This document shows, in pieces, positions 9,659-63,858 of a stretch of 64,000 nt of DNA. Location of the stretch: the NCBI GenBank assembly GCA_030018495.1, contig JASEFS010000001.1, forward strand, positions 161,285-225,284, in the 5' to 3' direction. The position numbers and the translations under genes were made by a program. How positions within the stretch are numbered: the stretch's first letter is position 1; every line of letters begins with the position of its first letter. Origin of the DNA: Deltaproteobacteria bacterium (GTDB taxonomy: Bacteria; Desulfobacterota; Desulfobaccia; Desulfobaccales; 0-14-0-80-60-11). The notes beneath the pieces were generated by a model. The model was not told the origin of the DNA. It did no database searches and saw only the letters and a list, made by a program, of their open reading frames with translations.

Positions 9659-9675
9659 GAGGAATTAAGACTTAC

Positions 9676-18596: not shown

Positions 18597-18600
18597 GTCT

Positions 18601-19152: not shown

Positions 19153-19488
19153 AGGCTCCTGTCCCTTTTAAGTAATAGTTTAAAATAAAAAAATATCATG
19201 CATTTGCCTTGAAGACAAGGAATTGTCTTAAATCCGGACACCGCCTGGTTCAGCTTGGCGCCGCGTTATAATGGCGCACGAGGCCGTGCCCCGTGCAGAA
19301 AATTTACCGGAAGATGAGGAAAGGGATATCAAGAGACGGAACTGCAGTCCCCCGTCTCCCCCCGAGCTCAGCCAAATGATGTTCACGGGGACATAATATT
19401 TTTCCTAGTTCATTGTCAGGTGATATGATTGAGTGAACCCCCGACATGGATTTAACCAGTCGCGGCCAAAAGCCGCCCGGTGTCAGAC

Positions 19489-19914: not shown

Positions 19915-19945
19915 CAATTTTTTCGAAAGAGCGGGCGGTGCAAAC

Positions 19946-20272
19946 ATGACGTTGAAAGAAGCCCGGGAGATTTTGGAGTTGGGGACCACGGCCAGCCGCC
20001 AGGAGATCAAGAAGGCTTACCGGCGGCTGGCCCGGCGCTGGCACCCGGACCGGGCCCCGGCGGGCCAGGAAGCGGCCTTTCGGGCGCGTATGCAGGAAAT
20101 CAACGCGGCGTACCAGCGCGTCAGGGACTTTGTGGAGAACTACCGCTACCGGCTGGACGAAACTGAAGCCCCGGAGGATGCCGCAGACATCGAAAAATGG
20201 TGGCAGGCCCGCTTCGGCGGCACGGGCGTCTGGGGCGCGCCGCCGAAGAAGGATCAAGGCGGGGGAGACTAA
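19946..20272 (+). CDS. J-domain (DnaJ-like) protein
   Basis: LELGTTASRQEIKKAYRRLARRWHPDR with the HPD tripeptide. ATG 19946. Confidence 0.8.
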   Translation: MTLKEAREILELGTTASRQEIKKAYRRLARRWHPDRAPAGQEAAFRARMQEINAAYQRVRDFVENYRYRLDETEAPEDAADIEKWWQARFGGTGVWGAPPKKDQGGGD

Positions 20273-21093: not shown

Positions 21094-21406
21094 GAAGGCT
21101 CCTTTCCAGTAATATTGAAATCGTCTCAAAAAGGTTTATTTATTATTCAATAAGATTTGCCAAACAATGTCGATTTTTTTGGATGTTCAAGCTCCTGAAA
21201 ATTCGAATTCTCCGACTGATGGGCCCGGAAACGAAAGGCTGACCGGTTGTTTTTTAACTTGCCGGCCCGGAGCATGATCTAACTAGGTGGGTGGGAACAT
21301 AAGCTTGCCTCGTCATCGGCGTCGCCGCGGGTGTTTTGGCCTCCAGCCGGGCGAGGACATAGGCGAACTTTCAAATAGTCTCATATAGATCGGAAAGGCA
21401 TTCTCT

Positions 21407-48665: not shown

Positions 48666-48746
48666 GGTTATCTAGCTCCCTTTTTCGACATCTAAGGGAA
48701 AGCGACCAGGGATGCAAAAAGTTTCCCCCTGCCGCTCGTTATATGG

Positions 48747-49271
48747 TTAACGACCGCTGACTACGGACTCCAGTTCAAAGGCCACGGTCTTGGCGAAGCG
48801 CTCCCGCTTGGTTAGGTCCATTTGCTCCACCCGGCCGAAGCTCAGGCAATGGGTGACGCACTTGGCCACGCAGGCCGGCTCCAGCCCCTGGTCGACCCGG
48901 TCCATGCAGTAGTCGCACTTCACCACCTTGCCGGTTTCCGGGTTCCACTGGGGGGCGCCCCAGGGACAGGCGGTGATGCAGCTCTTGCAGCCCACGCACA
49001 GGGCCGGTTCCACATAGACGATGCCGTCTTCGGGGCGTTTGCGCATAGCGTGGGTGGGGCATACAGGCACGCACCACGGGTCCTCGCAATGGAAGCAGGG
49101 CATGAAGATGAAGGCCTGCCGGGGCAGTCCCGCCACCATTTTGGGGCCCACCGGCATGATCTGTCCCAAACGGGGACCGGCGTTCAGCCCCTTGTTGCTC
49201 TTGCAATGCACTTCGCAGCTCAAGCAGCCGATACATTTTTTCTGATCTTGAAGTAGATAGTATTTGCTCAT
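48747..49271 (-). CDS. 4Fe-4S dicluster electron-transfer subunit (PsrB/PhsB/DmsB-like, short)
   Basis: CIGCLSCEVHC, CFHCEDPWCVPVCP, CVGCKSCITACP, CDYC. 10 nt downstream of the molybdopterin subunit. Confidence 0.85.
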   Translation of the reverse strand: MSKYYLLQDQKKCIGCLSCEVHCKSNKGLNAGPRLGQIMPVGPKMVAGLPRQAFIFMPCFHCEDPWCVPVCPTHAMRKRPEDGIVYVEPALCVGCKSCITACPWGAPQWNPETGKVVKCDYCMDRVDQGLEPACVAKCVTHCLSFGRVEQMDLTKRERFAKTVAFELESVVSGR

Positions 49272-49280
49272 GGGTTATCC

Positions 49281-51374
49281 TCACTTCACCGGACGGACCT
49301 GCACCAGGGTTTCGTCCAGGGCAGGGCTGCCGCCCACTTTATCCGAGATATTTTCCTGCAGCAGGGCATCGCTGGCGCCCTTCAGATAGCAACGGGTCTG
49401 GGCCGGCACGGTCTTGCCGAAGCCGTGCAGCATAAATACCGCTTCCGGGTGAATGAAATCGGTGACCTTGGCCTTGAGTTTGCCGTTGGTGTTCAAGGGA
49501 TTGGAGACCACCTCCACATACTGCCCATCCTTGATGCCCAGCTTGGCCGCAGCCGCGGTATGAATCCACAATTCATTTTCAGGCACAAGCTCATTCAATA
49601 ACAGATTGTTCTGCGTGGACACGTGGGTGTGGGCCGCGCACCGTCCCACCAAGAGGCGGAAGCGGCCTTCAGGCGGCGCAGCCACAGGCTCATACGGGGG
49701 AAAAGAGGGAAATCCGGCTTTTTCCATCAGCGAGCTGACAAACTCGATTTTGCCGGATGGGGTTTTGAATTTGATCCCGTCTTTACGGTCCCACAGAATA
49801 GCCTTATCAGTCAGGGACACAAACCCCTTGGCGTCGAAGTCCTCGATTTTCACCCCCATGTCCTTGAGCTGGAAGTTCCAGATGTCTTCGATGGTCTCAT
49901 AGGGGAAGTATTGTCCCAGCTCCAGGCGGGTGGCTATTTCCTTCCAAATAAGCCAGGCGGGCTTGGTGTCATACCGAGGCGTAACCGCCTGCTTGCGGAT
50001 GCGCAGGGAAGGCTTCAAGCCCGAGACCATTTGAATGGAATCGGCCCGCTCCAGATAAATGGACTCCGGCAGGATGACGTCGGCATACCAGGCAATTTCG
50101 CTGAAGTTGATATCAACGGCAACGATAAGGTCCAGCTTATTCAGGGCCTGCCGCACCTGGGCGCTGTCGGGGATGGACTGAAGCGGCTCAAAGCGGTTGG
50201 CAATGAGAGCCTTGATGGGGTACGGGTCCTCATTAATGATGGCGTGGGCCAGCATCTGGGGGTTGCCGTGGGAGGAATCCGCAATGGGGAAAGCCTCCGC
50301 GCCGGAGCCGTCAAACCGAGGCGCGTTGATCTTGGGGAATTCCTGGCTGACGTATTTGCCGATATCCCCCCGGCCTGCGGCCGCAGCGCCTTTCTTGAAG
50401 AACAACCCACCTTGGGCTTCGATGCTGCCCATCAGGGCGTTCAGGATGATTATGGAACGCCGGAAATAAATCTCATTGGGGTGATGGGCGCCCCGGTAGC
50501 CGTAGTGAAAGACGCAGGCCGGCTTGACTTCGGACATCTCCCGGGCCAAGTTTTTGATTTCCCCAGCCGGGATGCCGGTCTCGGCCTCGGCCCACTCCGG
50601 CGTATAGGGCTCCACGAAGGCTATCAGTTCGTTTAAGCCTGATACCCAGCGCCTGACATAGTCCTGATCATAAAGCTTTTCCTTCAGGATGGTGTGGATC
50701 AGGGCATAATTCAGGGCCAGGTCAGTGCCCGGGCGGATCATCCAGTAGCGGTCCGCCTTGGTGGCGGTGATGCTTACCCGCGGGTCGATATAGGTGAGCT
50801 TGGCCCCTTTGTCCATGGCCTTCAGAAGATTGTTGATGGGCGCGATCTCCAGGGCCTCGAAAATGTTGCGGCCATACATGACGATATGCCGGGTGTTGGC
50901 ATAGTCGACGCCCACCTGGGGGTCGGCATAGCCTGTCAGGCTGCGGAACGCGGTGTTCACGGACCCCTTGCACAACGCGTCGTGGGTGAAGTGGTTGGGG
51001 GAGCCGATGGCTTTCATGAAGGTCTTGCTGATGTGGGTGTTGAGGTTGGTGCGCTCTCCGAACACCACGCTGTGGCCGCCGTGCTCCTGGATGATGGCCT
51101 TGAGCTTGTCCGCCACATAGTCCAGGGCCTCCTCCCAACCGGCGCGGCGCCACTGGCCCGCCCCCCGCTCTCCGGTGCGGATCATGGGATATTGGGGCCG
51201 CTCATGGTCGTGCAGCAGGGCCAACCCGGCCGAGCCTTTGGCGCACAGCGCGCCCTCAATGCCAGGCACATGGGGGTTCCCCTGTATCCAAACCACGTCG
51301 TCGTTGGCCACCATCACCCGGATGGGGCAGCGCACGGTGCACATGAAACATATGCTCCAGACTTCGGTTGACAT
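49281..51374 (-). CDS. Molybdopterin (bis-MGD) oxidoreductase catalytic subunit, Psr/Phs/Ttr/Arr-like, apparently cytoplasmic
   Basis: N-terminal CFMCTVRCPIRV...CAKG FeS motif immediately after the Met, with no twin-arginine signal. Candidate Mo ligand context HFTHDALCKGS (Cys, not Sec). Confidence 0.9.
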   Translation of the reverse strand: MSTEVWSICFMCTVRCPIRVMVANDDVVWIQGNPHVPGIEGALCAKGSAGLALLHDHERPQYPMIRTGERGAGQWRRAGWEEALDYVADKLKAIIQEHGGHSVVFGERTNLNTHISKTFMKAIGSPNHFTHDALCKGSVNTAFRSLTGYADPQVGVDYANTRHIVMYGRNIFEALEIAPINNLLKAMDKGAKLTYIDPRVSITATKADRYWMIRPGTDLALNYALIHTILKEKLYDQDYVRRWVSGLNELIAFVEPYTPEWAEAETGIPAGEIKNLAREMSEVKPACVFHYGYRGAHHPNEIYFRRSIIILNALMGSIEAQGGLFFKKGAAAAGRGDIGKYVSQEFPKINAPRFDGSGAEAFPIADSSHGNPQMLAHAIINEDPYPIKALIANRFEPLQSIPDSAQVRQALNKLDLIVAVDINFSEIAWYADVILPESIYLERADSIQMVSGLKPSLRIRKQAVTPRYDTKPAWLIWKEIATRLELGQYFPYETIEDIWNFQLKDMGVKIEDFDAKGFVSLTDKAILWDRKDGIKFKTPSGKIEFVSSLMEKAGFPSFPPYEPVAAPPEGRFRLLVGRCAAHTHVSTQNNLLLNELVPENELWIHTAAAAKLGIKDGQYVEVVSNPLNTNGKLKAKVTDFIHPEAVFMLHGFGKTVPAQTRCYLKGASDALLQENISDKVGGSPALDETLVQVRPVK

Positions 51375-51563: not shown

Positions 51564-52067
51564 CTAACCGGATTTGGCCTGGGACGGACTGACCCAGGGC
51601 AGCCGTTTTATAGCCAGGTATGCGACTATATAGATAATAATGAAAGGCCCGATGAATCCCATGGACCAGCCGGTGCCGGGTATGGGAAACTCCACCTCCA
51701 GAAAGCGGTACTGCATCCAGGCCAGGGCGAAAAAAACGGGCCACAGAAAGGCCGCCGACAGGGCGGCCTGTTGGAAAAAGGAATGGCCGAAGGCCTCGTT
51801 GGCCAGCTCATTGGCGGCTTGATAGGCTTCCTTGTTCCCGGCCTTCAGGGCGTCCATGGACAGGTTCTGGTATTCTTCCGCTTCCGCCGCCTTCTCCTCA
51901 AGGCGTCTCCGGGTAATCCGAAAAACCGCAAAAACGCTTAGTTTGCCGATGAGCAGACAAAAACACGCCAGGGCAAAGGTGCCGATGCAAAAGTCCACCC
52001 AGGCATGGCCGGTGAGGCGGTAGAACCAGATCAGATAGGGGTCCAGGACCTGATAGAAAGGATGCAT
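51564..52067 (-). CDS. Hypothetical membrane protein (167 aa)
   Basis: Hydrophobic helices flanking a charged helical loop (RRRLEEKAAEAEEYQN...). Sits between the TauE-like and molybdopterin genes. Confidence 0.6.
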   Translation of the reverse strand: MHPFYQVLDPYLIWFYRLTGHAWVDFCIGTFALACFCLLIGKLSVFAVFRITRRRLEEKAAEAEEYQNLSMDALKAGNKEAYQAANELANEAFGHSFFQQAALSAAFLWPVFFALAWMQYRFLEVEFPIPGTGWSMGFIGPFIIIYIVAYLAIKRLPWVSPSQAKSG

Positions 52068-52130
52068 TTAGACCATTCCTAATGTGAGGGGGGTCGGCAG
52101 TTTACCAACCCCCCGGTGAAGTCGGTTTGT

Positions 52131-53291
52131 TTAAATGCCCGGCAGACGGATATCCGCAAAGCCGCGCAGGGTGTAGCCTAAGCCCACATAGAGTGCCAGG
52201 ATCACAAACAGCCTCTTGAGCCAGACATCGGGAATATACTTGGAGGTGTAAGGCCCGACAATGGAGCCGGTGGCGATGCCCACCAATTCGGCGCCGACGA
52301 ACAGGAAGTCAATGGGAGTGCCCTTGACGAACATAAAGGTGAAGATGGAGGTGATCATGCTGATGAACACCGCCAGGGCCGAGGTGCCGGCCACCACGTA
52401 CATGGGTAGGTTCACGATATTGGTGCAAAAGGGCACATAGAGAAAGCCGCCGCCGATGCCCAGGAAGGCCGACAGGGCTGCAATGAAAAAGCCGCCCACC
52501 ACCGGCCAAATGGGGTTGAAGTTGAAATCCACCCCGTAGAAGCTGAAGTCTACCCTGGTAAGGCCCCAGGATTTCACCCGCACTCCCTGGGCTGCGATTT
52601 CACCGGAGGCGGCGCCTTTTTTCACAGCTTCCTGGAAAGCCTGGGCGGCCTGCTTGGCCTTTTTCTTCTTTTCCTGTCCCCGGGGAGTGGTGTCATAGAA
52701 GAGAAAAGCTCCGATAACAAAAACGATGATGCCAAAATAGCCCACGTAGGCCTTAAGGCTGATCTTGCCGGCGGTGAGCACCGGAATGAGATAAGCGCCG
52801 GCAACGCCGCCGATGGCCAGGGCCACGCCCAACGGCAGAACCAGGCGGCCCATGCGGTAGTAGGTGACAGAGGACATCAATGCCGAAAGTCCCACCAGGT
52901 ACTGGTTGGAGGTGCGGATGGAGTCGGTGACCAGCTTGTTCAGGACCGGGCTGGTTTTCCGGAAGCTTGCCGCGTAATCACCCAGGCCGAAGACGCTGAT
53001 GTGCCCCACACCGGCCATGATGCCGCCGAACGCGCCCACGGTGGAAAAGATCCAGCCTACCCAGATGCCCCACAGAATGCCATAAAACCAGAAGGGGGTT
53101 GGGCCGCCCGGTATCCCCATGAAGCCCTTGGGCGCGTCAGGGTTGATCATGCCTTTTTCCGTCCCCTTGGGGGTTTGGGCGATGGCATCCTCCAATTTGC
53201 CGGCCCAGGAAGTGTCGGCCAAGGTCAGGGTGACCGCTATTACGGCCAAAACCGCGAGTATACCGAAGATTAAAAGGCCTTTTCTGTTCAT
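52131..53291 (-). CDS. TauE/SafE (DUF81) family anion permease with long cytoplasmic loop
   Basis: Multi-TM with repeated G-rich helices (GIGGGFLYVP...). AAGGAG RBS. Sigma-54 promoter upstream. Confidence 0.75.
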   Translation of the reverse strand: MNRKGLLIFGILAVLAVIAVTLTLADTSWAGKLEDAIAQTPKGTEKGMINPDAPKGFMGIPGGPTPFWFYGILWGIWVGWIFSTVGAFGGIMAGVGHISVFGLGDYAASFRKTSPVLNKLVTDSIRTSNQYLVGLSALMSSVTYYRMGRLVLPLGVALAIGGVAGAYLIPVLTAGKISLKAYVGYFGIIVFVIGAFLFYDTTPRGQEKKKKAKQAAQAFQEAVKKGAASGEIAAQGVRVKSWGLTRVDFSFYGVDFNFNPIWPVVGGFFIAALSAFLGIGGGFLYVPFCTNIVNLPMYVVAGTSALAVFISMITSIFTFMFVKGTPIDFLFVGAELVGIATGSIVGPYTSKYIPDVWLKRLFVILALYVGLGYTLRGFADIRLPGI

Positions 53292-53335
53292 AAATAATTC
53301 ACTCCTTATCCAAAATTTAAAATCAGTTAATTGAA

Positions 53336-53351
53336 AGCAAATTATATGCCA
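53336..53351 (-). promoter_or_regulatory. Sigma-54 (-24/-12) promoter
   Basis: Minus strand reads TGGCATATAATTTGCT (TGGCAT-N5-TTGC, canonical spacing), about 45 nt upstream of ATG 53291. A divergent EBP gene is adjacent. Confidence 0.75.
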
Positions 53352-53431
53352 TTACTAGACATTGAAATATTGAGGATAACATCTTAAAATTACAGATAAA
53401 TTAAAAAGCTTGATAAATATTGTGTAAATCC

Positions 53432-53456
53432 TGTAAACTTTACATTGTTAACAATT
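53432..53456. promoter_or_regulatory. Adjacent palindromes, candidate enhancer/operator sites
   Basis: tgtaaa-c-tttaca (53432-53444) and attgttaacaat (53445-53456), about 85-120 nt upstream of the -24/-12 element. Confidence 0.35.
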
Positions 53457-53487
53457 AATATTAAGCAGAATTCTGGTCGGTGCGATC

Positions 53488-54933
53488 ATGGAGAAAAGCA
53501 GGCAGGAAAGCTTCTGGGAGAAGGTCATCGATACCATGGGACAGGGCGTGCTGGTGGTTAACTCCCGGGGACGCATCCTGTTCGCCAACGACGCGGTGGA
53601 GGAGATCACCGGTTACCGCCGGAGCGAGCTTATCGGACAGCCATGCGCCATTTTAAGGAGCGATGCCTGCTTCGGCGCGGCCTCTGGCGCACCGGGGAGT
53701 CATTGTGAGCTGTTTCAGAAGGGCTCCATAAAGAGCTGTAAAGGCGCGCTGGTGAAAAAGGACGGAGGTTTGGTACACATCTTGAAGAATGCCGTCATGT
53801 TAGAAGACGGCACCGGCCAGACGGTAGGCGTGGAAACCCTCACCGATATCAGCGAAATGGTGGCTAAAGAGCGGGTGATTTCCCGACTGCGCCGCGAAAT
53901 CAGCCGGGAGGACAGTTTTCAGGGCATGATCGGCAAGTCGCCGGTTATGGATCAACTGTTCTGTCTTATCTCCAGTGCGGCGCAATCTGACGCTCCGGTG
54001 ATCATTTATGGGGAAAGCGGCGTCGGCAAAGAACTGGCGGCCGCGGCCATCCACCGATTGGGAGAGCGCCACCGGGGGCCGTTTATCAAGGTGAACAGCG
54101 CGGCGTTGGCCGAGTCCATATTGGAAAGTGAGCTTTTCGGGCATGTACGGGGGGCTTTCACCGGGGCCGAGCGCACCCGGGCGGGCCGGTTCGAAGCCGC
54201 CCATGGAGGCGACATTTTTTTGGATGAGGTGGGGGACCTCCCCCTGGCGACTCAGGCCAAGCTGCTCCGAGTCCTCCAGGAGAAGGTTGTCGAACGGGTG
54301 GGGGACCATCGGCCCATTCCGGTGGATGTCCGGATTATATCCGCCACCAACCAGGACCTTCCCCGCCTTATAGCTGAAGGACGCTTTCGTGAGGACCTGT
54401 TTTACCGGATTAACGTCATTCCCATTCATATCCCGCCCCTAAGAGAGCGCCGGGAGGACATCCCCCTTCTGGTGGAAGCGTTCATTGAACGCAACCGGCT
54501 TAAAACCCGGAAACCCATCAGCGGCATCAGTAAAGAAGCTTTAGATAAGATCCTGGCTTACCGATGGCCGGGCAACGTCCGGGAACTTATCAATGCCATT
54601 GATTATGCCTTTGTGCTCTGCCACGAGGGAGCTATCTTGCCGAAACACCTTCCCGGTGCGCTGAATCATCAGAAAGCTCCCCGGTCCATGGGCGGGCGCG
54701 CGGTGCTGCCGGCCAGTCCGGCCAGGGATAGGGAGGCTTTAATGGACGCGATGGAACAGGCCGCAGGCAATAAATCCGAGGCCGCCAGAATCCTGGGAGT
54801 AAGCCGGGTGACCTTGTGGAAATGGCTTAAAAACTATCAATTGAATGGTGAGGACGGCTCCGCTTTCCCCGGAAAGGCGGACAGTGAGTTGCCGCCTCCG
54901 AGGTCCCGGAGAATTGTGGGAATTAAAAAATAA
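53488..54933 (+). CDS. Sigma-54-dependent transcriptional activator (PAS, AAA+, Fis-type HTH)
   Basis: Walker A GESGVGKE, GAFTGA loop (RGAFTGAER), C-terminal AARILGVSRVTLWKWLK. N-terminal PAS-like domain. Confidence 0.9.
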   Translation: MEKSRQESFWEKVIDTMGQGVLVVNSRGRILFANDAVEEITGYRRSELIGQPCAILRSDACFGAASGAPGSHCELFQKGSIKSCKGALVKKDGGLVHILKNAVMLEDGTGQTVGVETLTDISEMVAKERVISRLRREISREDSFQGMIGKSPVMDQLFCLISSAAQSDAPVIIYGESGVGKELAAAAIHRLGERHRGPFIKVNSAALAESILESELFGHVRGAFTGAERTRAGRFEAAHGGDIFLDEVGDLPLATQAKLLRVLQEKVVERVGDHRPIPVDVRIISATNQDLPRLIAEGRFREDLFYRINVIPIHIPPLRERREDIPLLVEAFIERNRLKTRKPISGISKEALDKILAYRWPGNVRELINAIDYAFVLCHEGAILPKHLPGALNHQKAPRSMGGRAVLPASPARDREALMDAMEQAAGNKSEAARILGVSRVTLWKWLKNYQLNGEDGSAFPGKADSELPPPRSRRIVGIKK

Positions 54934-54959
54934 GGTGACTTTTATTTGAGGGAAGAGAA

Positions 54960-55907
54960 GTGACCGCTAAAAAAAGCAGCAGAATTCTATGGGGGCTCGC
55001 GGCCGCCCTGGCCTGGGGCATGCTTATCCTGGCCGGCTGCGGGGACAGCGAACCGGCCAAGAAAATCGACTTATCCAAGCGGGAGGAGACGATATACCGG
55101 CAGGAGGACGCCATCACTTATGCCTATCTGCCCCAATACGCCCATACGGTCTCTTATGAGCGCCATCACCTGGTGGTGGACTATCTGAGCCGCACCACCG
55201 GGATGACGTTTCGCCAGGTTTTCCCGGACACGTTTGACGAGCATATGAACATGGTGGGAAGAGGCCTCATAGACATCACCTTCAGCAACCCCTTCATTTA
55301 TGTGAACATCGCCGACCGCTACGGCGCCCGGGCCTTTGCCCGCATAGTGGAAGCCAAAGGCAAGGAGAATTTCCGCGGCCAGATCATTTGCCGGGCTGAC
55401 AATCCGCAAATCAAAACGCTGAATGACATCAAGGGCAAGCGCTTGATTGCTGTTGACCCCACTTCGGCCGGCGGCTTCCTTTATCCCTGGGGCTGGATTT
55501 TGGAGCACGGCATCCGTAAGGAGGATCTGGCGGAAATCGCCTTTGCTCCGGGGCCGGGCGGCAAGCAGGAAAAAGTGGTTATGGCGGTCTTGTCGGGCAA
55601 GTACGATGTGGGGGTCATCCGGGAGGGAACACTGGATATCATGGCCAACAAGATTGATGTTAACCAAATAAGAGTGTTGGCCTACTCACGTTGGTACCCT
55701 GGCTGGGTGTATGCGGCCCGGCGGGGACTGGACCCGGCCATCGTGGACAAAATTAAACAGGCCTTGCTGGCTTTAAACATGGACGATGCCGATCATGCCA
55801 CTATTCTAAAAAAGGCCGGTTTTATTGCTATTATCCCGGCCAAGGATGAAGATTTTAACTCGGTGCGGCGGCTGGCCCAGATCGTGGAAGCCGGCGGCAA
55901 GCCCTAA
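54960..55907 (+). CDS. PhnD-like (phosphate/phosphonate-type) periplasmic substrate-binding lipoprotein
   Basis: Lipobox LILAGCG. YLPQYAH...; type-2 SBP pattern with GKRLIAVDPTSAGGFLYP. GTG start. Confidence 0.75.
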   Translation: MTAKKSSRILWGLAAALAWGMLILAGCGDSEPAKKIDLSKREETIYRQEDAITYAYLPQYAHTVSYERHHLVVDYLSRTTGMTFRQVFPDTFDEHMNMVGRGLIDITFSNPFIYVNIADRYGARAFARIVEAKGKENFRGQIICRADNPQIKTLNDIKGKRLIAVDPTSAGGFLYPWGWILEHGIRKEDLAEIAFAPGPGGKQEKVVMAVLSGKYDVGVIREGTLDIMANKIDVNQIRVLAYSRWYPGWVYAARRGLDPAIVDKIKQALLALNMDDADHATILKKAGFIAIIPAKDEDFNSVRRLAQIVEAGGKP

Positions 55908-55977
55908 GGCCATGGAGGAATTCAGCGGCAAACCGACCCCCCCAGGAAGTCCTGGAGCGGCTGATAAGGTGGGAATT

Positions 55978-58071
55978 ATGCGGTTTTTTAGCAGCCTGTC
56001 TTTACGCAGCAAGATATTTTTGATCATTACCGCGGTGGTTTTGGTTTTCGGCTTACTTTCGGCGACGTTTGTGAGCCGTATTGCCACTAAGGCCATGGTG
56101 GGGGAAATCAAAAAGCGGGGCCTTACCCTGGGTCTGGGTTTGGCGGCCCGGATTGCGGATCCCATGCTGGCCGTTGATTTTCTCCGCCTGAAGAATATGG
56201 TGGATCAGGTAAAAGAGTCCAGTGACGACATTGTCTATGTATTTGTTCTGGATAAAAATGAGAGGGTGTTATCCCATACTTTCAAGAGCGGCTTCCCGGT
56301 CAACCTGAGAACCGCCAACCAGGTGCCGCCGGGCGCCGGCCAGCATATTCAATTGCTGGAAATCGACGAGGAAGAGCGGGTTTACGACTTCGCTCTGCCT
56401 ATAGTGATCAGCCATGCGCGTTTGGGCACGGTCCGGCTGGGGCTTTCTCAGATCAAGGCCCAAGCTGCGGTGCAGCGCCTTTTGTTCATTATATTCAGCG
56501 CCTCTCTGGGAGCCGGCCTAGTGGCGGTGGTGCTGGGAACCCTGTTCGCCAGCACCGTCACTCGGCGTCTGGACGTCTTGCGCAGGTCCGCAGAAATGAT
56601 GGTCAAGGGCAACCTGGATATCCAAACCGGCCCGCAGCTCAAAAGCAACTGCTGGCAGATCAGGGATTGTCAGAAGATGGAATGTCCGGCTTTTGGCGAC
56701 GTTCGGCGCCGCTGCTGGTATTTGGCCGGCACCATGTGCCCCGAATGCGCGCCGGGCGGGTTTGAACAAAAGTACGAAACCTGCAAAAACTGTGAAGTCT
56801 TTTGGGCCAGCAGTGGCGATGAAATCCAGAGTTTGGCCGAGGCTTTTGATTTCATGGCTCTCAGTCTCAAATCCTATATCGAAAACCTTAAGGAGGCGGA
56901 AAAGAGCATTACCAGGCAGCAGCAGGTCCTCAAAACCATTCTGGACGTCACCCCTGATCCGGTCAGCCTCCAAGACGCAGATCTGCGCTATCGTGCGGTG
57001 AACCCCGCGTTCCGGTATTATTTTTCCATAGATGAAGCAGATATTATAGGCAAATCCGATGTGGACATCTTCTCCCCCGAATTGGCTGAGATGATACGCC
57101 GGGAGGATCTGGAGATTCTTAAAACCGGGCACACCTTATCCAAGGAAATCCTGGTCGGCAAGGACAACGACAAACATTGGTTTCACATGGTGAAGGTGCC
57201 GGTATACGATGAGAAACGGATTGCCGGCCTATTGTTTACGGCTCGGGATATTACTGAAATCAAGAAGTATCAGGAAAAGCTCATCCAAACCGTAAAGATG
57301 GAAGAGTTGGGCAAGTTGGCCGGGGGCGTGGCCCATGAAATCAATACCCCTTTGGGCATTATTTTGGGTTATGCCCAGATCCTGTTGGAAGATCTGCCCC
57401 AGGACACCGAGAGTCACGAATACCTGGAAATAATAGAGAAGCAGGCCCAAATCTGCCGCCACATCGTCGCGGACCTGCTCAACTTTTCCCGCGTCAGCGA
57501 CAGCCGTATGGAAGAAATGGATCTTAACCAGTCGATTGATGAGGTGGTGCACCTGGTGCGCCACATCTTCAAACAGGACTGGGTAGACATTCAAACCTCC
57601 CTTGATCCTCAAATCCCGGCTATACGGGGAGACCGGGAGAAGCTCAAGCAGGTTTGGCTTAATCTCCTGAACAACGCCTTTGAATCCATCGGCCGGGAAG
57701 GCACGATTCAGGTAACTTCAAAGTTGTGCCCCCAAGGCAACCATGTGGTGGTGAGCGTGGCCGATACCGGCGCCGGAATCAGCGCCGAAGACCAGAAGAA
57801 AATCTTTGAGCCCTTTTTCAGCACCAAGGCCCCGGGAGTGGGCACCGGGCTGGGCTTGTCGGTGTCCCTGGGCATTGTCCGGGAACATCAGGGCAAAATT
57901 ATTGCGGTAAGTCCGGCCCGAAGGGAATTCCTTGAGCAAGCGGGTGAGACCCAAAGACCCGGCGCCCTTTTCATCGTGCTCTTGCCGGTGAATTGGGAAA
58001 TACCCGTGGAGGATGCCTGCGAGGAGCTGGTGCGGCTCAATATCGATGACCAACAACTGGCGACCGGATAG
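55978..58071 (+). CDS. Sensor histidine kinase: periplasmic sensor, HAMP, Cys-rich two-CW domain, PAS, HisKA/HATPase
   Basis: H-box [13 protein letters not shown]; N/G boxes [31 protein letters not shown]...[13 protein letters not shown]...CKNC insert. ATG 55978 preferred (AAGGTGGG upstream); ATG 55912 also possible. Confidence 0.85.
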
Positions 58072-58079
58072 GGGAAACG

Positions 58080-58454
58080 ATGGGACAGATACTGGTTCTG
58101 GATGACGTTTTGGATGCTGGAGTGATGATAAAGCGCATTCTGGAACGCAAAGGCCATCAGGTGGCGGTGTTCACCGACGAAGAAGAGGCCCTGGCGCATG
58201 CGCGCTCTCAGCCGGTAGACGTGGCCATCCTGGACATCAGGCTGAAAAAGATGAGCGGTGTCGATGTCTTGCAGGAGCTGATGAAAATATCTCCCCAGAC
58301 TCAGGTTATCATGCTTACGGGCTATCCCACCCTGGAAACGGCTCGGCAGGCCCAGGAGTGGGGGGCGTGCGATTATTGCATCAAACCCATCGACAAGGAT
58401 GAGCTGGAAGAAAAGGTGGCCAACGCGTTGGCGGCGGCGACCAGGCCCTCATGA
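58080..58454 (+). CDS. Single-domain (CheY-like) response regulator
   Basis: ILVLDD...VAILDIRLKKMSG...IMLTGY...CIKP. No output domain. Confidence 0.9.
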   Translation: MGQILVLDDVLDAGVMIKRILERKGHQVAVFTDEEEALAHARSQPVDVAILDIRLKKMSGVDVLQELMKISPQTQVIMLTGYPTLETARQAQEWGACDYCIKPIDKDELEEKVANALAAATRPS

Positions 58455-60964
58455 ATTTCAGTCAGCTTTTCAGATATTGGACCCTCCAGGTTTTTGCTCC
58501 GGACAAATTGCTGCGCCACAAGTATGAAGCCTTCAAGGAACTCCTGCGTCACGATAAAAAAAGCCTGGAACTGATTACGGATTTGGAAGAGGTCCAGCAT
58601 GCCGGGACACCGGTGGATTGGGCCAGGATTGACAGGCTGGTGCGCGCTCTCAACTGGTCCGTGGGGAGCTTGGTCCGCTCCCTGGTGTCCATGCATCCCG
58701 GCGGCGCGTACAGCGGCCTGGAGCGGCGCTTCAGGCAACTGGAGTCTTCCCTTGCCGCGGCTGTCGCCCTCCCGGAGGGGGACCGATCCCCGCCTTACAC
58801 TCTGAACCTGTCGGACGCGGCCGCTGAGCCGGGCCTGGCGGGAGGCAAAGCCCACACCCTCAGCCGGCTGCTCAGGGACGCAGGCCTGCCGGGCCCCCGG
58901 GGATTTGTCATCACCACCAACGCCTTCCGCTACTTTTTGCACCATAATGGCCTGCGTCACCGGCTGGACGAACTTCTGGCCGAAGTGAGCCTGGATGACT
59001 GGGAACGCCTGGAGAGGCTGTCCGGGGAAATGACCGAGATGGTGCTCACGGGGGAAGTTCCGCCGGAAATAAGGGAGGAAACTGCACGAAGATTGGCATC
59101 TCTTAAGCGGGAGGGTTGCACCGGTCCCTGGAGTTTGCGCAGCAGCGCCGCCAGTGAAGATGGCGAATTGTCATTTGCCGGCCAATATGCCAGCGTGCTC
59201 GGGGTGGGTGAGGAAGAGGACTTTTTCGTTGCGTATAAAAGGGTGTTGGCCAGCAAGTATGCGCCGCGCGCCGTGGCCTACCGCATCCGCGGCGGTTTGG
59301 CCGACCCGGAAACGCCGATGGCGGTTCTGGTCATGCAAATGGTTGACGCCAGGGTGAGCGGCGTGGTCTACACCAGGGACCGGGAGCCAAGCCGAGGAGA
59401 AGATTCCCTGGCGGTTTACGCGGTCCCCGGCCTGGGATATCGGCTGGTGGACGGCAGCGCCGAACCCGAAGTCCATTATTTCACCCGGGAGGCGCAACCC
59501 CAGCCCCTTGGGTCCTTGCCCTCCCGCACCTGTCCGGTGGAACTCACCGGGAAGGTCTGTCTTGATTCAGAAACCGCGCAATTGCTGGCCGGATGGGGTA
59601 TGCGCCTGGAAGGAGTCGCCGGCTGCCCTCAGGATATCGAATGGACCCAAGACCATTCGGGGTCATGCTATATCCTGCAGGCGCGCCCCCTGTTCACCAG
59701 GACTTTCGCCGCGGCGCCGGGGACTGAAGAGGAGGAAACGCGTGTCCCGGAACAAGCCGTTCTCCTGGAAGGGGGAGTGACGGCCAGCGCCGGGGTTGGG
59801 GTAGGGCGGGTTTACCTCCTGGAAAGCGAGGCGGAGCTGGGGATGGTGCCGGATGGTGCGGTGCTGGTGTCGCCGACCCTGACTCCTGCCCTGGCGGGGA
59901 TAATCAGGCGGTTGCGCGCGGTGGTGGCGGCCGGCGGCAGCCGCGCCAGCCATTTCGCGTCCATAGCCAGGGAATACGGCTTGCCTGTGTTGGCCGCGGT
60001 GCGCGAGGCTGCCAAGCTCTTGCCGCCCGGCGAGACGGTCACCGTGGATGCCGCTCGTTGCCGAGTCTACCGGGGGGAAGCGGCTGGACTAGTGGGAGAA
60101 CCTCAGCGAAATTATTTTCTCCCGAAGTCGGCCTTTCAAGCGCGCTTACAGAAAGCTTTGGACTTGATATCGCCCTTGCATCTCCTGGACCCCGCGTCTC
60201 CGGATTTTAAGCCGGAAAACTGCGCCAGCATGCATGACGTGACGCGCTTTGCGCATGAAAAAGGCATGGCCGAGATGTTTTCGCTGGTGGGCCGCAGCGG
60301 CCGGGGCCTGGCCCGGGCCCGGCAACTGGAAAGCGACCTGCCCCTGGTTATGTACATCCTGGACCTGGAGGGCGGCATTGCCCCGGAGGCGGCGGATAAG
60401 AAGACCATCAGACCGGAGTTCATCACCTCGCCCCTCATGCGGGCCTGCTGGGCTGGGCTTACCCACCCCGACGTGAACTGGCGTTCAGGCCTGATCCATA
60501 TCGATTGGGAGGAGTTGGACCGCGTCAGCGCCGGCATCCTGAGCCTCAAATCCGCGCTCCTGGCCAGCTACGCCATAGTGGCGCAAGAATATCTCCACCT
60601 GGTGCTCCGGTTCGGCTACCATTTCGCGGTCCTGGACGCTTTGGGCGGCGACAACCCGGAGGCCAACTACATCGCTTTCCGCTTCAAAGGCGGGGGGGCG
60701 CATTACGAAAGCAGGCTTCTCAGGGTGGAACTGATTAAAGCGATTTTGGAGTGGGCCGGCTTTACCGTCAAAACCCGGGGCGATCTTCTGGACGCCCGCT
60801 TCGACCGCCGACCCGCGGAGCAGATATTGGCCCGCCTGACCCTGTTGGGGATTCTCCAGGGCAAGACCCAGCTTCTGGATATGGCCTTGAGTGATCAGGA
60901 GCAGGTCAACGGGATGGTGGATGCCTTTAAGGAGAGCTTCGGCCAGTATGTGGCCAAAGCCTGA
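58451..60964 (+). CDS. PpsA/PPDK-like dikinase family protein: ATP-grasp nucleotide domain, phosphohistidine swivel domain and unknown C-terminal domain (no PEP/pyruvate TIM barrel)
   Basis: GGKAHTLSRL, RSSAASEDGELSFAGQY, PQDIEWT, swivel His GGSRASHFASIAREYGLP. Start overlaps the RR stop (ATGA). Confidence 0.8.
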   Translation: MNFSQLFRYWTLQVFAPDKLLRHKYEAFKELLRHDKKSLELITDLEEVQHAGTPVDWARIDRLVRALNWSVGSLVRSLVSMHPGGAYSGLERRFRQLESSLAAAVALPEGDRSPPYTLNLSDAAAEPGLAGGKAHTLSRLLRDAGLPGPRGFVITTNAFRYFLHHNGLRHRLDELLAEVSLDDWERLERLSGEMTEMVLTGEVPPEIREETARRLASLKREGCTGPWSLRSSAASEDGELSFAGQYASVLGVGEEEDFFVAYKRVLASKYAPRAVAYRIRGGLADPETPMAVLVMQMVDARVSGVVYTRDREPSRGEDSLAVYAVPGLGYRLVDGSAEPEVHYFTREAQPQPLGSLPSRTCPVELTGKVCLDSETAQLLAGWGMRLEGVAGCPQDIEWTQDHSGSCYILQARPLFTRTFAAAPGTEEEETRVPEQAVLLEGGVTASAGVGVGRVYLLESEAELGMVPDGAVLVSPTLTPALAGIIRRLRAVVAAGGSRASHFASIAREYGLPVLAAVREAAKLLPPGETVTVDAARCRVYRGEAAGLVGEPQRNYFLPKSAFQARLQKALDLISPLHLLDPASPDFKPENCASMHDVTRFAHEKGMAEMFSLVGRSGRGLARARQLESDLPLVMYILDLEGGIAPEAADKKTIRPEFITSPLMRACWAGLTHPDVNWRSGLIHIDWEELDRVSAGILSLKSALLASYAIVAQEYLHLVLRFGYHFAVLDALGGDNPEANYIAFRFKGGGAHYESRLLRVELIKAILEWAGFTVKTRGDLLDARFDRRPAEQILARLTLLGILQGKTQLLDMALSDQEQVNGMVDAFKESFGQYVAKA

Positions 60965-60996
60965 TGCCGGGGCACGGCTTATTTTAGAGATTTAGC

Positions 60997-62064
60997 ATGG
61001 CTGAAAAGAGCTATCAATTGGATTGGGTGACCGACAGTCTGGCGGTGGGGCAGGCGCCCATGTCTTATGAGGCCTTGGATCAACTGCGGGAACAGGGCAT
61101 AAACGCCATTATGAATTTGTGCGCCGAATTTTGCGATTTGCACTGGATTGAAGCCGACGCCGGGTTCGAAGTGTATTATTTCCCCATTCCCGACGAGCAA
61201 GCACCGGACTTGCAAGAGTTGGAAAAGGCCCTGGACTGGCTGGACGAATGCCTGTACTTAGGGAAAAAAGTGCTGGTCCACTGCCGCTTCGGCATAGGGC
61301 GGACCGGCACGGTGGTGAATGCCTACCTGCTGCGCAAGGGCCTGGGGCATAAACTGGCCGGCAGAAAGCTCAAGGGTTTCAAGTCCCGGCCTGCCAATTT
61401 CGACCAGTGGTGGTTCATCCGCAAGTACGGCAAAAAAGAGAAACCTTTGGTTATCCGGGAGCCTGCCCTGGAGACCAAACATCTGGTGGATCTTTTCCCG
61501 TTTTTTAAAGATTACCGAAAAATCCGCAAAGAGGTGGACCAGCGCCTGGCCGCGGCCGGAAAAGAGACCTTGTGCGGCCAGGGACATGCACAATGCTGCC
61601 GGGAACTGGTGGTCATGTCATTCATTGAGACGGTGTATGTCAACCATGTTATCAACACCACCCTGGACCGGGTGACGCGCCGGAATGTCATCCAGCGGGC
61701 CGTGGATGCAAGCCGGGCCTGGCGGGAGTTAAAGCAGCAGACAGAGGCGGATTATGACGACGAAGCCTTGGCCGCGGCCTACCGGCAGGCCCAAATTCTG
61801 TGCCCGTTGAACGAATACGGGGAATGTCTGATTTTTGAAAACAGGCCCCTGTCCTGCCGCATTTTCGACCTGCCCGCGTGGGACCGCGAAGATTTTGCAG
61901 CCCGGCTGCCCCAGGCCCTGGGCGAAATTTCAGACAGCGTGTATTCTGCTTTCACTTCCCGGCTTCCGGGCGGCGTATCCCTTAATTTTTCTTTGCCAGA
62001 AGTGGTATCAGGCAAATTTATCCAGGCTTTTTTCCATCACCTGCTGAAAAACAACGCGGCCTGA
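60997..62064 (+). CDS. Fusion of a dual-specificity (Cys-based) phosphatase domain and a YkgJ-like Cys-cluster domain
   Basis: CX5R P-loop VLVHCRFGIGRTGTVV. C-terminal CGQGHAQCC ... CPLNEYGECLIFENRPLSCRIF, typical of YkgJ/UPF0153 proteins. Confidence 0.75.
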   Translation: MAEKSYQLDWVTDSLAVGQAPMSYEALDQLREQGINAIMNLCAEFCDLHWIEADAGFEVYYFPIPDEQAPDLQELEKALDWLDECLYLGKKVLVHCRFGIGRTGTVVNAYLLRKGLGHKLAGRKLKGFKSRPANFDQWWFIRKYGKKEKPLVIREPALETKHLVDLFPFFKDYRKIRKEVDQRLAAAGKETLCGQGHAQCCRELVVMSFIETVYVNHVINTTLDRVTRRNVIQRAVDASRAWRELKQQTEADYDDEALAAAYRQAQILCPLNEYGECLIFENRPLSCRIFDLPAWDREDFAARLPQALGEISDSVYSAFTSRLPGGVSLNFSLPEVVSGKFIQAFFHHLLKNNAA

Positions 62065-62169: not shown

Positions 62170-62223
62170 TAGAACCGCCGCCCTCGGCGGTTCGAGACGC
62201 CGGCGGGGGCGCCGGCGCAACAT
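62170..62223. repeat. Double GC-hairpin element, copy B
   Basis: tagaaccgccgccctcggcggttcgagacgccggcgggggcgccggcgcaacat, homologous to 31276-31327. Confidence 0.7.
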
Positions 62224-62335: not shown

Positions 62336-63061
62336 TTATTCCAAGCCTTTGGGAAGGTAGGGGCGCAGGCGCTCCCTGGCCCAGGCGTGGCTGCGCCAAC
62401 CGGCCGCGGGAGGCGCGTGGGAACGGCTGAGAAAATTAAGGAGTTCGTCCCAGGCGTCGATATCCGGCCAGGGCGGCAGGAGGTGGGTTTTGAGACCGGC
62501 TTGTGCGGCCCGGGCCAGGGTTTGTTCAAGCACCGCGGCCGTGGACCAGGAAATCTCATGAAAGATTTCCGGGCTCGGTTTTCTTAAGCCCACAAGGTAA
62601 TAGCCCCCGTCCGGACAGGGGCCCAGGACCACGTCGGCCCGGCCCCCGGCCAAAATCTCCCTCCCTTCCAGAATATAGGGTCCCGGCAGGTCAGGGCTGT
62701 CGCTGTTGCGCATGAGCACCGCGGCATAGCCTTGGGCAAAGCCCCACTTGGCGGCCTCGATCAAACGGTCGCTCAGACCGGCCTCGGCCTGGACTAACAA
62801 TTTAACGCCTTCGGGGGACAATTTTTCAAAGAAAGCCTTAGCAGAAGCAGGCTCATAGGCCACCGCGACGTCGATTCCGGAAAGACCGGTCATTTCCTCC
62901 AAAATGTCTTTTAAAAAGCAGTGATAGAGCTCCGCAGCCTCGGCAGGCGACAGGGGGGGAGACAAACGGGTTTTTACTTGCCCCGGCACCGGCTTCTTGG
63001 CGAAAATAATGAGAAAGGCGTTGGCAGGGGCCAGGGGCCTGGGGTCAGGAGTCAGGGTCAT
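62336..63061 (-). CDS. DUF2064/TIGR04282-like transferase (CofC-like nucleotidyltransferase fold)
   Basis: FLIIFAKKPVPGQVKTRLSPPLSPAEAAELY...SDSPDLP...GPCPDGGYYLVGL. Confidence 0.7.
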   Translation of the reverse strand: MTLTPDPRPLAPANAFLIIFAKKPVPGQVKTRLSPPLSPAEAAELYHCFLKDILEEMTGLSGIDVAVAYEPASAKAFFEKLSPEGVKLLVQAEAGLSDRLIEAAKWGFAQGYAAVLMRNSDSPDLPGPYILEGREILAGGRADVVLGPCPDGGYYLVGLRKPSPEIFHEISWSTAAVLEQTLARAAQAGLKTHLLPPWPDIDAWDELLNFLSRSHAPPAAGWRSHAWARERLRPYLPKGLE

Positions 63062-63114
63062 TGATGCAATTCTATATCAGGTGAGCTCCCATAAACAATC
63101 GATGCGGCAAGGAA

Positions 63115-63858
63115 ATGAAATCCTGTAAGGGCGCGCCTGGCCGCGCCGCAGCCGGCCCGCCTCTCATCTCTATCATTATTCCCATTCTGAACGAAAAAGA
63201 AAATCTAAAGGAACTTCTCGGTGGTCTCCCTGCCGCCCCGGATGTGGAAATCCTGCTGGTGGACGGCGGCAGCACCGACAGTACCCTGGAGGAGGCGGCC
63301 CTTTTCCCGGGCGTGCAGATTTTTGGCAGTTCTCCGGGCCGCGGCCTGCAGATGAACACCGGCGCCCTGGCCTCAGGGGGGGAAATTCTCGTCTTTCTGC
63401 ATGCGGACACCCGGATGGGGGCCGCGCACCTGGAAGCCCTGCGCCGGGAGGCCGCGGACCCTTCCTTTGGCGCGGGCGCGTTCGCCTTTGCCCTGACGCC
63501 GGACCTGCCGGCCCTGCGGTTTATCACCCGGGGAGTCAATCTGCGCTGCCGCGTCTTTGGCCTGCCCTACGGCGATCAGGCCCTCACCGTCAGGAGGAGC
63601 CTCTTTTTCCGGCTGGGGGGCTACGCCCACCGCCGCCCTGAAGACCTGGACCTGGTGCTCCGCTTGAGAAAGCATACCCGCCTGCGCCTCCTTAAGCCGC
63701 CGCTATCCACCTCCGCCCGACGCTGGCTGGAACAGGGCTATTTCAGGACCACCATGAACAACTGGCTGTTTTTGGTCCGCCATCTGGCCGAACGCATTTT
63801 CACCCGCCGCTGGCCGGAAAAGGGGGACATGGAGAAAGTTGTTGGGGGAGGGGGCTAA
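63115..63858 (+). CDS. Family-2 glycosyltransferase, TIGR04283-like
   Basis: ISIIIPILNEKENL...LVDGGSTDSTLE...LFLHADT...GLPYGDQALTVRRSLFFRLGGY. Confidence 0.7.
   Translation: MKSCKGAPGRAAAGPPLISIIIPILNEKENLKELLGGLPAAPDVEILLVDGGSTDSTLEEAALFPGVQIFGSSPGRGLQMNTGALASGGEILVFLHADTRMGAAHLEALRREAADPSFGAGAFAFALTPDLPALRFITRGVNLRCRVFGLPYGDQALTVRRSLFFRLGGYAHRRPEDLDLVLRLRKHTRLRLLKPPLSTSARRWLEQGYFRTTMNNWLFLVRHLAERIFTRRWPEKGDMEKVVGGGG

Follow-up and report, generated by a model that had tools for sequence, protein, structure and literature searches.

Sulfate-reducing bacteria cause souring and corrosion in oil fields, and nitrate is the main chemical countermeasure against them. Only two loci, rex and a 'nitrate cluster', have been reported to confer high-level nitrate resistance in the two model strains, Desulfovibrio vulgaris Hildenborough and G20, with resistance to high nitrate arising through loss of function (PMC4001038). 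The genetic cluster (DVU0251-DVU0245 in D. vulgaris, Dde_0597-Dde_0605 in G20) and its nitrate phenotype are already published (Korte et al., 2014, PMC4001038); that work was genetic only and did not say how the dikinase or the phosphatase works, and the biochemistry has remained unexplained since 2014. Here we describe the counterpart of this cluster in a 64,000-nucleotide stretch of contig JASEFS010000001.1 (GenBank assembly GCA_030018495.1, positions 161,285 to 225,284) from a Deltaproteobacteria bacterium of the Desulfobaccales, referred to below as the window. At the center of the cluster are a dikinase-like protein and a Cys-phosphatase fusion, encoded in one cassette with a two-component system and a PhnD-like binding protein, and lying next to a TauE/SafE anion permease (Table 1).

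The described enzymes closest to the dikinase-like protein are phosphoenolpyruvate (PEP) synthase (PpsA) and pyruvate phosphate dikinase (PPDK), with which it shares the ATP-grasp domain, a central swivel domain with a catalytic His, and the order of these domains. It differs from them in having no TIM barrel, in an extra 118-residue helical N-terminal domain, in Ala499 at the place of the regulatory Thr, and in scores that fall far under the family cut-offs. Rifampin phosphotransferase (RPH), HpeHI and phenylphosphate synthase resemble it in their ATP-grasp and swivel-His chemistry, which is directed to a non-pyruvate acceptor. However, the acceptor domain of RPH sits between the ATP-grasp domain and a C-terminal swivel, whereas the swivel of the window protein is central. 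Its C-terminal domain matches none of the acceptor domains of these barrel-less small-molecule dikinases (5hv1 and 5fbs included), none of which has a phosphatase partner or answers to a two-component system. VadK (Rv1127c) of Mycobacterium tuberculosis is also PPDK-derived and barrel-less, autophosphorylates on His, and works in regulation, not as an enzyme of central metabolism (PMC13400623). It belongs to another lineage and another context, the methylcitrate cycle, and no receiver or phosphatase partner has been reported for it. VadK is ~490 aa long and is not known to carry an added C-terminal domain.

Two further systems resemble the cassette in pairing a phosphate-transferring enzyme with a Cys phosphatase. 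Plant glucan water dikinase (GWD) is opposed by dual-specificity-type phosphatases (SEX4, LSF2, laforin), but it has another domain order and is eukaryotic or plastidial, while the window cassette has no carbohydrate-binding modules (CBMs) and no glycan enzymes in its conserved neighborhood. In the bacterial tyrosine kinase/low-molecular-weight protein tyrosine phosphatase (LMW-PTP) pair Wzc/Wzb, adjoining kinase and Cys-phosphatase genes switch a membrane export or transport machine by phosphorylation. There the kinase fold is unrelated, a Walker-type BY-kinase as opposed to an ATP-grasp enzyme with a swivel His.

Orthology to the Desulfovibrio nitrate cluster

Judged by gene content, gene order and protein identity, the cassette and the adjacent permease pair are the ortholog of the nitrate cluster. 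All seven nitrate-cluster genes are in the window at 51564-62064, and the dikinase-like protein is 45% identical over 838 residues to its G20 counterpart (ABB37405.1) and 44% identical to that of N. vulgaris Miyazaki (B8DQL1), full length in both cases. A G20-type locus among the relatives that we compared (L092), with the order DUF169, TauE, hypothetical, PhnD, histidine kinase (HK), receiver (REC), dikinase, dual-specificity phosphatase (DSP), corresponds gene for gene to Table 3 of the published study (PMC4001038). An original prediction, made by a model from the letters of the window, had outlined the five cassette genes, and these stand; it had missed the TauE/TSUP permease and the small membrane protein (51564-53291) as well as the identity with the known nitrate cluster. 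The two arrangements differ in that all seven Desulfovibrio genes run in one direction (in G20 with DUF169 in front), whereas the permease pair of the window is divergent, and in that the window has a PAS/sigma-54 activator between the permease pair and the sensor genes, plus a PhsA-like reductase. The DUF169 gene of the G20-type locus (Dde_0597; L092 2155-2979), which precedes TauE, is not in the window; its mutant also gained fitness in nitrate (PMC4001038).

The published genetics gives the cluster a phenotype, known only for D. vulgaris Hildenborough and G20. Transposon mutants of the permease, the membrane protein, the receiver and the dikinase showed unimpaired growth in 100 mM nitrate, and mutants of the binding protein had high nitrate fitness in pooled screens, while the D. 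vulgaris phosphatase mutant remained nitrate-sensitive, with a fitness of -6.04 (PMC4001038). The original prediction had supposed that kinase and phosphatase oppose each other, and the D. vulgaris data agree, since in nitrate the dikinase mutant and the phosphatase mutant behave in opposite ways (PMC4001038). In that organism the mutant phenotypes group the dikinase and the receiver with the permease and set the phosphatase against them. The G20 cluster mutants were also mildly impaired on thiosulfate, and the authors proposed that nitrate leaks in via a thiosulfate transporter (PMC4001038).

The literature that we searched mentions the nitrate-cluster locus tags nowhere beyond this paper, and searches for a PEP synthase or dikinase together with DSP, YkgJ, response regulator or chromate genes returned nothing on the cassette. 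Nor did it contain the domain-level reading given below, with the non-barrel C-terminal domain, the fusions, the ArsC-like replacement, the chromate-linked sister family and the PhsA-like association.

A dikinase-like protein with a non-barrel C-terminal domain

The dikinase-like protein has more than 1000 homologs with full-length conservation. The original prediction had described it as an enzyme that retains the ATP-grasp and phosphohistidine swivel domains and has lost the PEP/pyruvate barrel, a description that our analysis bears out. Both motifs quoted for it are present, RSSAASEDGELSFAGQY at residues 230-246 and GGSRASHFASIAREYGLP at residues 495-512. Across 39 homologs, the RSSA..ED, FAGQY and QDIEW motifs of the ATP-grasp domain are invariant, as are G496, S497, A499 and H501 of the swivel. 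The ATP-grasp domain aligns to the PEP synthases 8a8e and 2ols, and the N-terminal part of the full-length AlphaFold model (pLDDT 81.9) matches PEP synthase, RPH, HpeI and PPDK in Foldseek. The helical domain at the N-terminus, found in at least 96 of 150 family representatives, and the C-terminal domain are of another kind: Pfam at E≤10 gave no match over residues 1-128 or ~550-837.

When the C-terminal 286 residues were modeled alone, they formed an alpha+beta fold with an antiparallel sheet and no beta/alpha barrel (pLDDT 74.2). A Foldseek search of the Protein Data Bank (PDB) with this model returned nothing significant (best E 0.023), a profile search of the PDB with the domain returned no match at E≤10, and the barrel family PF02896 had no match in the protein even at E≤10. 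Aligned by hhalign against the barrel of the canonical PPDK from one related locus (L002), the domain gave a probability of 0.43%. A divergent PEP/pyruvate barrel is rejected by the Pfam, hhalign and model results. In that locus, from Desulfobulbaceae BRH_c16a, the canonical PPDK with its PEP-utilizers_C barrel (18292-21096) lies ~6 kb from the barrel-less gene, and the two coexist. The NCBIfam matches tell the same story: the PEP synthase families reached 243.7 bits against a cut-off of 598 (NF005057) and 231.5 against 739.75 (TIGR01418), and the rifampin phosphotransferase family 161.7 against 999 (NF041857), all spanning the first two domains only.

Conservation within the protein is highest in the C-terminal domain, with 67% mean column identity vs. 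63% overall. Arg, Lys, His, Asp, Tyr and Cys are among its invariant residues, it has an FRFKGGG Gly-rich loop, and many of its polar residues are invariant across subfamilies. The domain is presumed to be the acceptor or ligand site. A profile of the domain found 1282 representative clusters at E≤0.001, and among the 150 clusters listed it always follows the ATP-grasp and swivel domains. Two ideas about the other domains were discarded. The N-terminal helical domain is not an HPt-like phosphotransfer bundle, as its sole candidate His (H34) is not conserved and is Leu in G20, and control of the swivel domain of the PSRP type is unlikely, since the residue two positions before His501 is Ala499, not Thr.

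The paired Cys phosphatase

The gene that follows the dikinase gene encodes a protein with a DSP domain at residues 10-120 (Pfam Tc-R-P, E 3e-20, and DSPc, E 6.4e-14, both above cut-offs). The CX5R motif HCRFGIGRTG that had been reported for it is present at residues 95-104, with the codon of Cys96 at 61282-61284, and all 70 homologs compared share D66 (the general acid), H95, C96, R97, G99, G101, R102 and T103. The protein thus has both the HCX5R(S/T) P-loop and the upstream general-acid Asp of DSP/protein tyrosine phosphatase (PTP) enzymes. Its nearest solved relatives are small archaeal-type PTPs, and it has more than 1600 full-length homologs. The second half had been called YkgJ-type in the original prediction. 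This call is under the Pfam threshold (PF03692, 16.2 bits vs. a cut-off of 23, E 0.018), and the first motif is C-x6-CC, not CxxCxxCC. Six cysteines, C193, C200, C201, C269, C277 and C287 (61573-61857), are nevertheless conserved in 70 homologs, and the JGI annotation of homologs is 'Fe-S-cluster containing protein'.

Two natural proteins, P0290 and P0337 (1252 and 1205 aa), fuse the dikinase, the DSP and the YkgJ-like domain in one chain, and the cassette around P0290, with PhnD, HK and REC, is identical in all other respects.

Dikinases are also found with a CX5R enzyme in a sister subfamily, of which we found no description in the literature searched. Its dikinases have a concanavalin A (ConA)-like β-sandwich as their C-terminal extension, which, scanned alone, matched the Glyco_hydro_59_C lectin domain with 29.9 bits vs. 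a cut-off of 27. Their partner is often a non-homologous CX5R enzyme with an LMW-PTP fold, ArsC-like, encoded in one case 2 bp upstream of the sister dikinase and in another fused to it N-terminally. The best match of this partner is thioredoxin-coupled arsenate reductase, at 101 bits vs. a cut-off of 215; it has a C-x6-C relay pair, a DF-family (seleno)protein domain is joined to it in one case, and its likeness to ArsC leaves room for a reductase-type reading. The sister genes (L084, L085 and L087-L091) are in chromate-resistance contexts (ChrB, ChrA, ChrB_C, MFS) or adjoin GDT1/TerC transporters, and this chromate-linked subfamily has no receiver nearby.

Synteny and distribution

A scan of species-representative genomes found a relative of the dikinase-like protein encoded in 427 genomes, with relatives in Desulfovibrionales, Desulfobulbales, Desulfobacterales, Desulfobaccales and Syntrophobacterales. 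Of 83 related loci, 75 have the phosphatase fusion gene after the dikinase gene; in three of the other eight a contig end cuts the locus. The median gap between the two genes is ~4 bp. The adjacency, whose absence from related genomes would have refuted the original prediction, is thus conserved. Most Desulfovibrionales and Desulfobaccales loci have the complete PhnD-HK-REC-dikinase-DSP array, and some loci (L002, L034 and L094) have the REC-dikinase-DSP trio alone. The arrangement is far beyond chance, and the cassette recurs over several orders of Thermodesulfobacteriota. Flank clustering revealed no further conserved genes outside the seven-gene unit; conservation falls off sharply, save for the clade-specific sigma-54 activator, the PhsA-like reductase and DUF169.

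Sensor genes and receiver

The PhnD-like lipoprotein is presumed to be the ligand sensor of the system. It scores under the NCBIfam cut-offs for PhnD and also resembles the sensor domain of TtrS. The HK gene probably starts at ATG 55978 (after GGTGG), not at the TTG 55825 given by the open reading frame (ORF) tool, because homologs align from residue 1-2. A Cys-rich insert (residues 226-273, window 56650-56793) splits the HAMP region of the kinase. Of its cysteines, C226, C232, C237, C247, C255, C258, C270 and C273, six are invariant and two partly kept in 50 homologs; no Pfam family covers the insert, which could be a metal, Fe-S or redox-sensing module.

The HisKA/HATPase kinase and a receiver with a phospho-acceptor Asp are as in a classical two-component system. 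The receiver keeps D8, D9, D52, T80 and K102 invariant in 65 homologs and therefore should be phosphorylatable. Its 124 residues hold the Response_reg domain only, with no DNA-binding or enzymatic output domain in Pfam. The receiver stop and the dikinase start are a median of ~11 bp apart, and in 11 loci they overlap by 4 bp.

The permease pair and the reductase context

Flank clustering and tblastn place the TauE/SafE permease gene and the small membrane gene upstream of the cassette in 30 of the 40 loci that could be judged, which are the PhnD-containing ones with enough flank. The small membrane gene, whose 167-aa product has no Pfam or NCBIfam match, adjoins the TauE gene in 29 related loci. 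In Desulfovibrionales the permease pair is on the strand of the cassette, which makes a seven-gene array; in the window and in L093 it is divergent. In L034 the pair abuts REC-dikinase-DSP with no sensor genes between.

A sigma-54-type promoter-like element, TGGCATATAATTTGCT, lies ~45 nt 5' of the TauE start, with one mismatch to TGGCAC-N5-TTGCW. This pattern is not above chance in the window as a whole, and it is by position alone that the element before TauE is suggestive. Exact TGGCAY-N5-TTGCW matches occur upstream of TauE in L011 (1052-1067) and L075 (2225-2240). No sigma-54 promoter was found before the PhnD gene; the sole well-placed match in the window is the one upstream of TauE. The element faces the PAS/sigma-54 activator gene.

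Downstream of the TauE and membrane genes, on the same strand, are a PhsA-like gene and a 4Fe-4S gene, and the same is seen in L093. A 1131-aa NuoF/GltD-type flavoprotein fusion also lies downstream on the minus strand, the three genes spanning 45270-51374. The PhsA-like, 4Fe-4S and NuoF/GltD-type proteins together resemble a thiosulfate/polysulfide-type reductase that is cytoplasmic and NAD(P)H-linked.

A possible control module for an anion permease

We tentatively propose, at slightly less than an even chance, that the region is an oxyanion-sensing control module for the TauE/TSUP permease that works via a dikinase/phosphatase switch. The PhnD-type lipoprotein and the Cache/PAS histidine kinase would sense an external anion, most likely thiosulfate or a related sulfur oxyanion; thiosulfate is suggested by the gene for a cytoplasmic PhsA-like reductase that comes after the permease genes both in the window and in L093. 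The kinase would phosphorylate the receiver-only protein, which has no DNA-binding output and is translationally coupled to the dikinase gene, and the receiver would in turn control the dikinase-like enzyme. This PEP-synthase-derived enzyme would load the β-phosphate of ATP onto swivel His501, and the phosphate would then be delivered at the new non-barrel C-terminal domain, not to pyruvate. The downstream CX5R Cys phosphatase, with its YkgJ-like fusion, would take that phosphate off, and the phosphorylated state would promote the activity of the neighboring TauE-type permease and its small membrane partner. A link to permeases is also seen in kind, as sister-subfamily genes are beside other anion transporters (ChrA, MFS, GDT1/TerC).

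It is from the observed gene content, domain anatomy, catalytic-residue conservation, synteny, fusions and orthology to a cluster with mutant phenotypes that we infer the direction of control, the identity of the anion, and an acceptor that is not a metabolite but a protein, be it the enzyme itself, the receiver or the permease pair. The phosphorylation cycle, which the original prediction had deduced from domain content, is likewise putative, as is its substrate. In this reading, the 'poorly annotated' genes would encode a phosphohistidine enzyme under receiver control, with a new acceptor domain and a Cys phosphatase working against it. If the proposal is true, it would be a new type of two-component output, in which an ATP-grasp/swivel-His phosphotransferase takes the place of the DNA-binding domain, and anion permeases would be controlled, or chemically coupled to, in a new way.

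Several observations weigh against this proposal. Ten of the 40 testable loci have no adjoining TauE gene, and Maridesulfovibrio, Desulfofustis and some Desulfobacca are examples of genomes in which a dikinase-DSP pair stands apart from any receiver, kinase or permease gene. The invariant His, Asp, Arg, Tyr and Cys of the C-terminal domain, with its Gly-rich loop, suggest a site for a small molecule or an ion more than a surface for docking a protein, and the sister partner, resembling thioredoxin-coupled arsenate reductase and joined to a redox protein, hints at redox chemistry over simple dephosphorylation. The genetics is also not uniform: the G20 phosphatase mutant had a fitness of +2.08, at odds with D. 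vulgaris, and pooled and isolated DVU0250 mutants disagree (PMC4001038). Finally, the kinase DVU0248 is a pseudogene in D. vulgaris Hildenborough, yet the receiver DVU0247 has a strong phenotype (PMC4001038). The role of the receiver may therefore not depend on its cognate kinase, and the order from HK to REC may be incomplete.

The same observations bear on the alternatives. One that is unlikely on balance but a real possibility is metabolic: the dikinase would phosphorylate a small imported anion, a sulfur oxyanion or a metabolite derived from it, the CX5R enzyme would process the phospho-product by hydrolysis or reductive cleavage, and nitrate would be a substrate analogue that drives a futile ATP-to-AMP conversion. 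Such a futile cycle predicts what is seen, nitrate resistance upon dikinase loss (PMC4001038). The strong conservation of the C-terminal domain, with its invariant polar residues and FRFKGGG loop, points the same way, as do the biochemically characterized barrel-less relatives, all of which take small molecules (rifampin, phenols, hydroxyphenylethanones). Both partner types are oxyanion-binding P-loop Cys enzymes with a redox-type module (DSP with six Cys, ArsC-like with DF), and oxyanion gene contexts recur throughout (the PhnD-like binder, TauE, the PhsA-like reductase, ChrA/ChrB). However, metabolism is not known to contain a phosphorylated inorganic oxyanion of this kind, a kinase and then a plain phosphatase acting on one metabolite would themselves make a futile cycle, and the DSP retains the general-acid Asp typical of true phosphatases. 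Receiver-only control, and a conserved core with no other pathway enzymes, fit a switch better. We regard as rather doubtful the broader idea that the dikinase family is a new class of ATP-driven phosphohistidine enzymes for oxyanion handling, which would either phosphorylate an inorganic or sulfur oxyanion or energize or gate anion permeases in the manner of the phosphotransferase system (PTS), with the paired CX5R enzymes (DSP-YkgJ, or ArsC-like with DF) cleaving or reducing the phospho-intermediate. If the oxyanion-enzyme reading were true, it would tie together thiosulfate use, the nitrate and (per)chlorate sensitivity of sulfate reducers, and the chromate-resistance clusters of the sister subfamily.

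It is improbable, though suggested by several features of the receiver, that the dikinase is a non-canonical ATP-driven histidine kinase like VadK, passing phosphate from the swivel His to Asp52 of the receiver, with the phosphatase resetting the enzyme or the receiver and the classical kinase serving as a dispensable second input. VadK, a barrel-less PPDK derivative that autophosphorylates, has been described as a histidine kinase (PMC13400623), the receiver gene is coupled more tightly to the dikinase gene than to the kinase gene (the 4-bp overlap in 11 loci), the REC-dikinase-DSP trios occur without PhnD or HK, and the receiver mutant of D. vulgaris is still nitrate-resistant in spite of the kinase pseudogene (PMC4001038). 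On the other hand, the dikinase-phosphatase pairs without a nearby receiver, which the chromate-linked subfamily lacks altogether, do not fit a phosphodonor, and the large conserved C-terminal domain would be left with no role. Cys-based phosphatases are also not the usual enzymes for aspartyl phosphate, and the N-terminal helical domain offers no conserved His (H34 being Leu in G20). The original prediction had drawn an analogy to glucan or polymer phosphorylation cycles, as in plant GWD/PWD with SEX4/LSF2 or laforin, and here we consider such a cycle very improbable. There is a formal likeness in that a dikinase is paired with a DSP, and the sister subfamily has a ConA-like C-terminal β-sandwich, but the analogy does not hold in detail: no CBM is among the Pfam matches of the dikinase or the phosphatase, the order of grasp, swivel and C-terminal domain is that of PEP synthase and not of GWD, the DSP is nearest to small archaeal-type PTPs, and the conserved neighbors are anion transporters and sensors, not polysaccharide enzymes. 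As for an ordinary divergent PEP synthase or PPDK with a degenerate barrel at its C-terminus, public annotations ('pyruvate, water dikinase' or 'pyruvate kinase') and the best NCBIfam match, which is PEP synthase, are in its favor. With that match far under its cut-off and limited to the N-terminal two domains, no PF02896 barrel by Pfam or hhalign, an antiparallel alpha+beta model, and a canonical barrel PPDK separately encoded 6 kb off in L002, its probability is close to nil.

Gene layout and neighboring genes

The ORFs listed in Table 1 for the cassette are all present as first described. The original prediction had counted six same-strand genes at 54960-62064. They are indeed co-directional with short spacing, but this interval holds five tightly packed genes, and the sixth is the PAS/sigma-54 activator, before its start. 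From the activator to the phosphatase the spacings are 26, 70 (or 4), 8, -4 and 32 bp, where -4 is the overlap (ATGA) of the receiver stop with the dikinase start, as had been noted and as follows from the coordinates 58454 and 58451. Of the related loci, only the closest (L005-L009, L011, L047, L082 and L093) have the activator in this place.

Table 1. Coordinates of the permease, reductase and cassette features in the window, with their nitrate-cluster counterparts (PMC4001038; for the small membrane protein, by position in the nitrate cluster)
Feature	Position	Strand	Evidence	Counterpart
4Fe-4S subunit	48747-49271	-	Pfam	
PhsA-like molybdopterin oxidoreductase, cytoplasmic	49281-51374	-	Pfam; NCBIfam PhsA 608 bits vs. 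cut-off 694, match begins after signal region	
Small membrane protein, 167 aa ('conserved hypothetical')	51564-52067	-	ORF	DVU0250/Dde_0600
TauE/SafE (TSUP-family) anion permease, 386 aa	52131-53291	-	Pfam TauE E 2.6e-21	DVU0251/Dde_0598
Sigma-54-type promoter-like element	53336-53351	-	One mismatch to TGGCAC-N5-TTGCW	
PAS/sigma-54 AAA+/Fis-HTH transcriptional activator, without receiver domain	53488-54933	+	Pfam	
PhnD/PtxB-like periplasmic binding lipoprotein	54960-55907	+	Pfam Phosphonate-bd E 8.6e-62; signal peptide, lipobox LILAG-C	DVU0249/Dde_0601
Sensor histidine kinase	55978-58071	+	Pfam sCache_3_2, partial HAMP, PAS, HisKA, HATPase_c	Dde_0602; DVU0248 (pseudogene)
Receiver-only response regulator, 124 aa, NtrC-type receiver	58080-58454	+	Pfam Response_reg E 1.3e-24	DVU0247/Dde_0603
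Dikinase-like protein (PPDK-like), 837 aa	58451-60964	+	Pfam PPDK_N and PEP-utilizers	DVU0246/Dde_0604
Dikinase N-terminal four-helix domain, residues 1-118, no known family	58451-58804	+	AlphaFold helices	
Dikinase ATP-grasp nucleotide-binding domain, residues 129-421	58835-59713	+	PPDK_N E 1.3e-65	
Dikinase phosphohistidine swivel domain, residues 467-536	59849-60058	+	PEP-utilizers E 2.6e-15; His501 codon 59951-59953	
Dikinase C-terminal domain, residues 552-837, replaces PEP/pyruvate barrel	60104-60964	+	No Pfam or PDB match	
Cys-phosphatase fusion (DSP/PTP and YkgJ-like domain), 355 aa	60997-62064	+	Pfam	DVU0245/Dde_0605

An anti-phage defense system was considered for the cassette and rejected: PADLOC gave no match for the dikinase, the phosphatase, the kinase or the binding protein, and only weak matches to the receiver domain. 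Beyond the phosphatase gene, a perfect GC-rich palindrome, GAACCGCCGAGGGCGGCGGTTC, at 62172-62193 separates it from a convergent DUF2064/CofC-like gene and is probably a terminator common to both. That gene and the GT2 glycosyltransferase gene after it (together at 62336-63858) are not kept beside the cassette in relatives. Elsewhere the window encodes housekeeping proteins, namely IF-2, polynucleotide phosphorylase and glutamyl-tRNA synthetase (4134-6884, 9322-11823 and 42290-43693), which fits a chromosomal, not a mobile, context.

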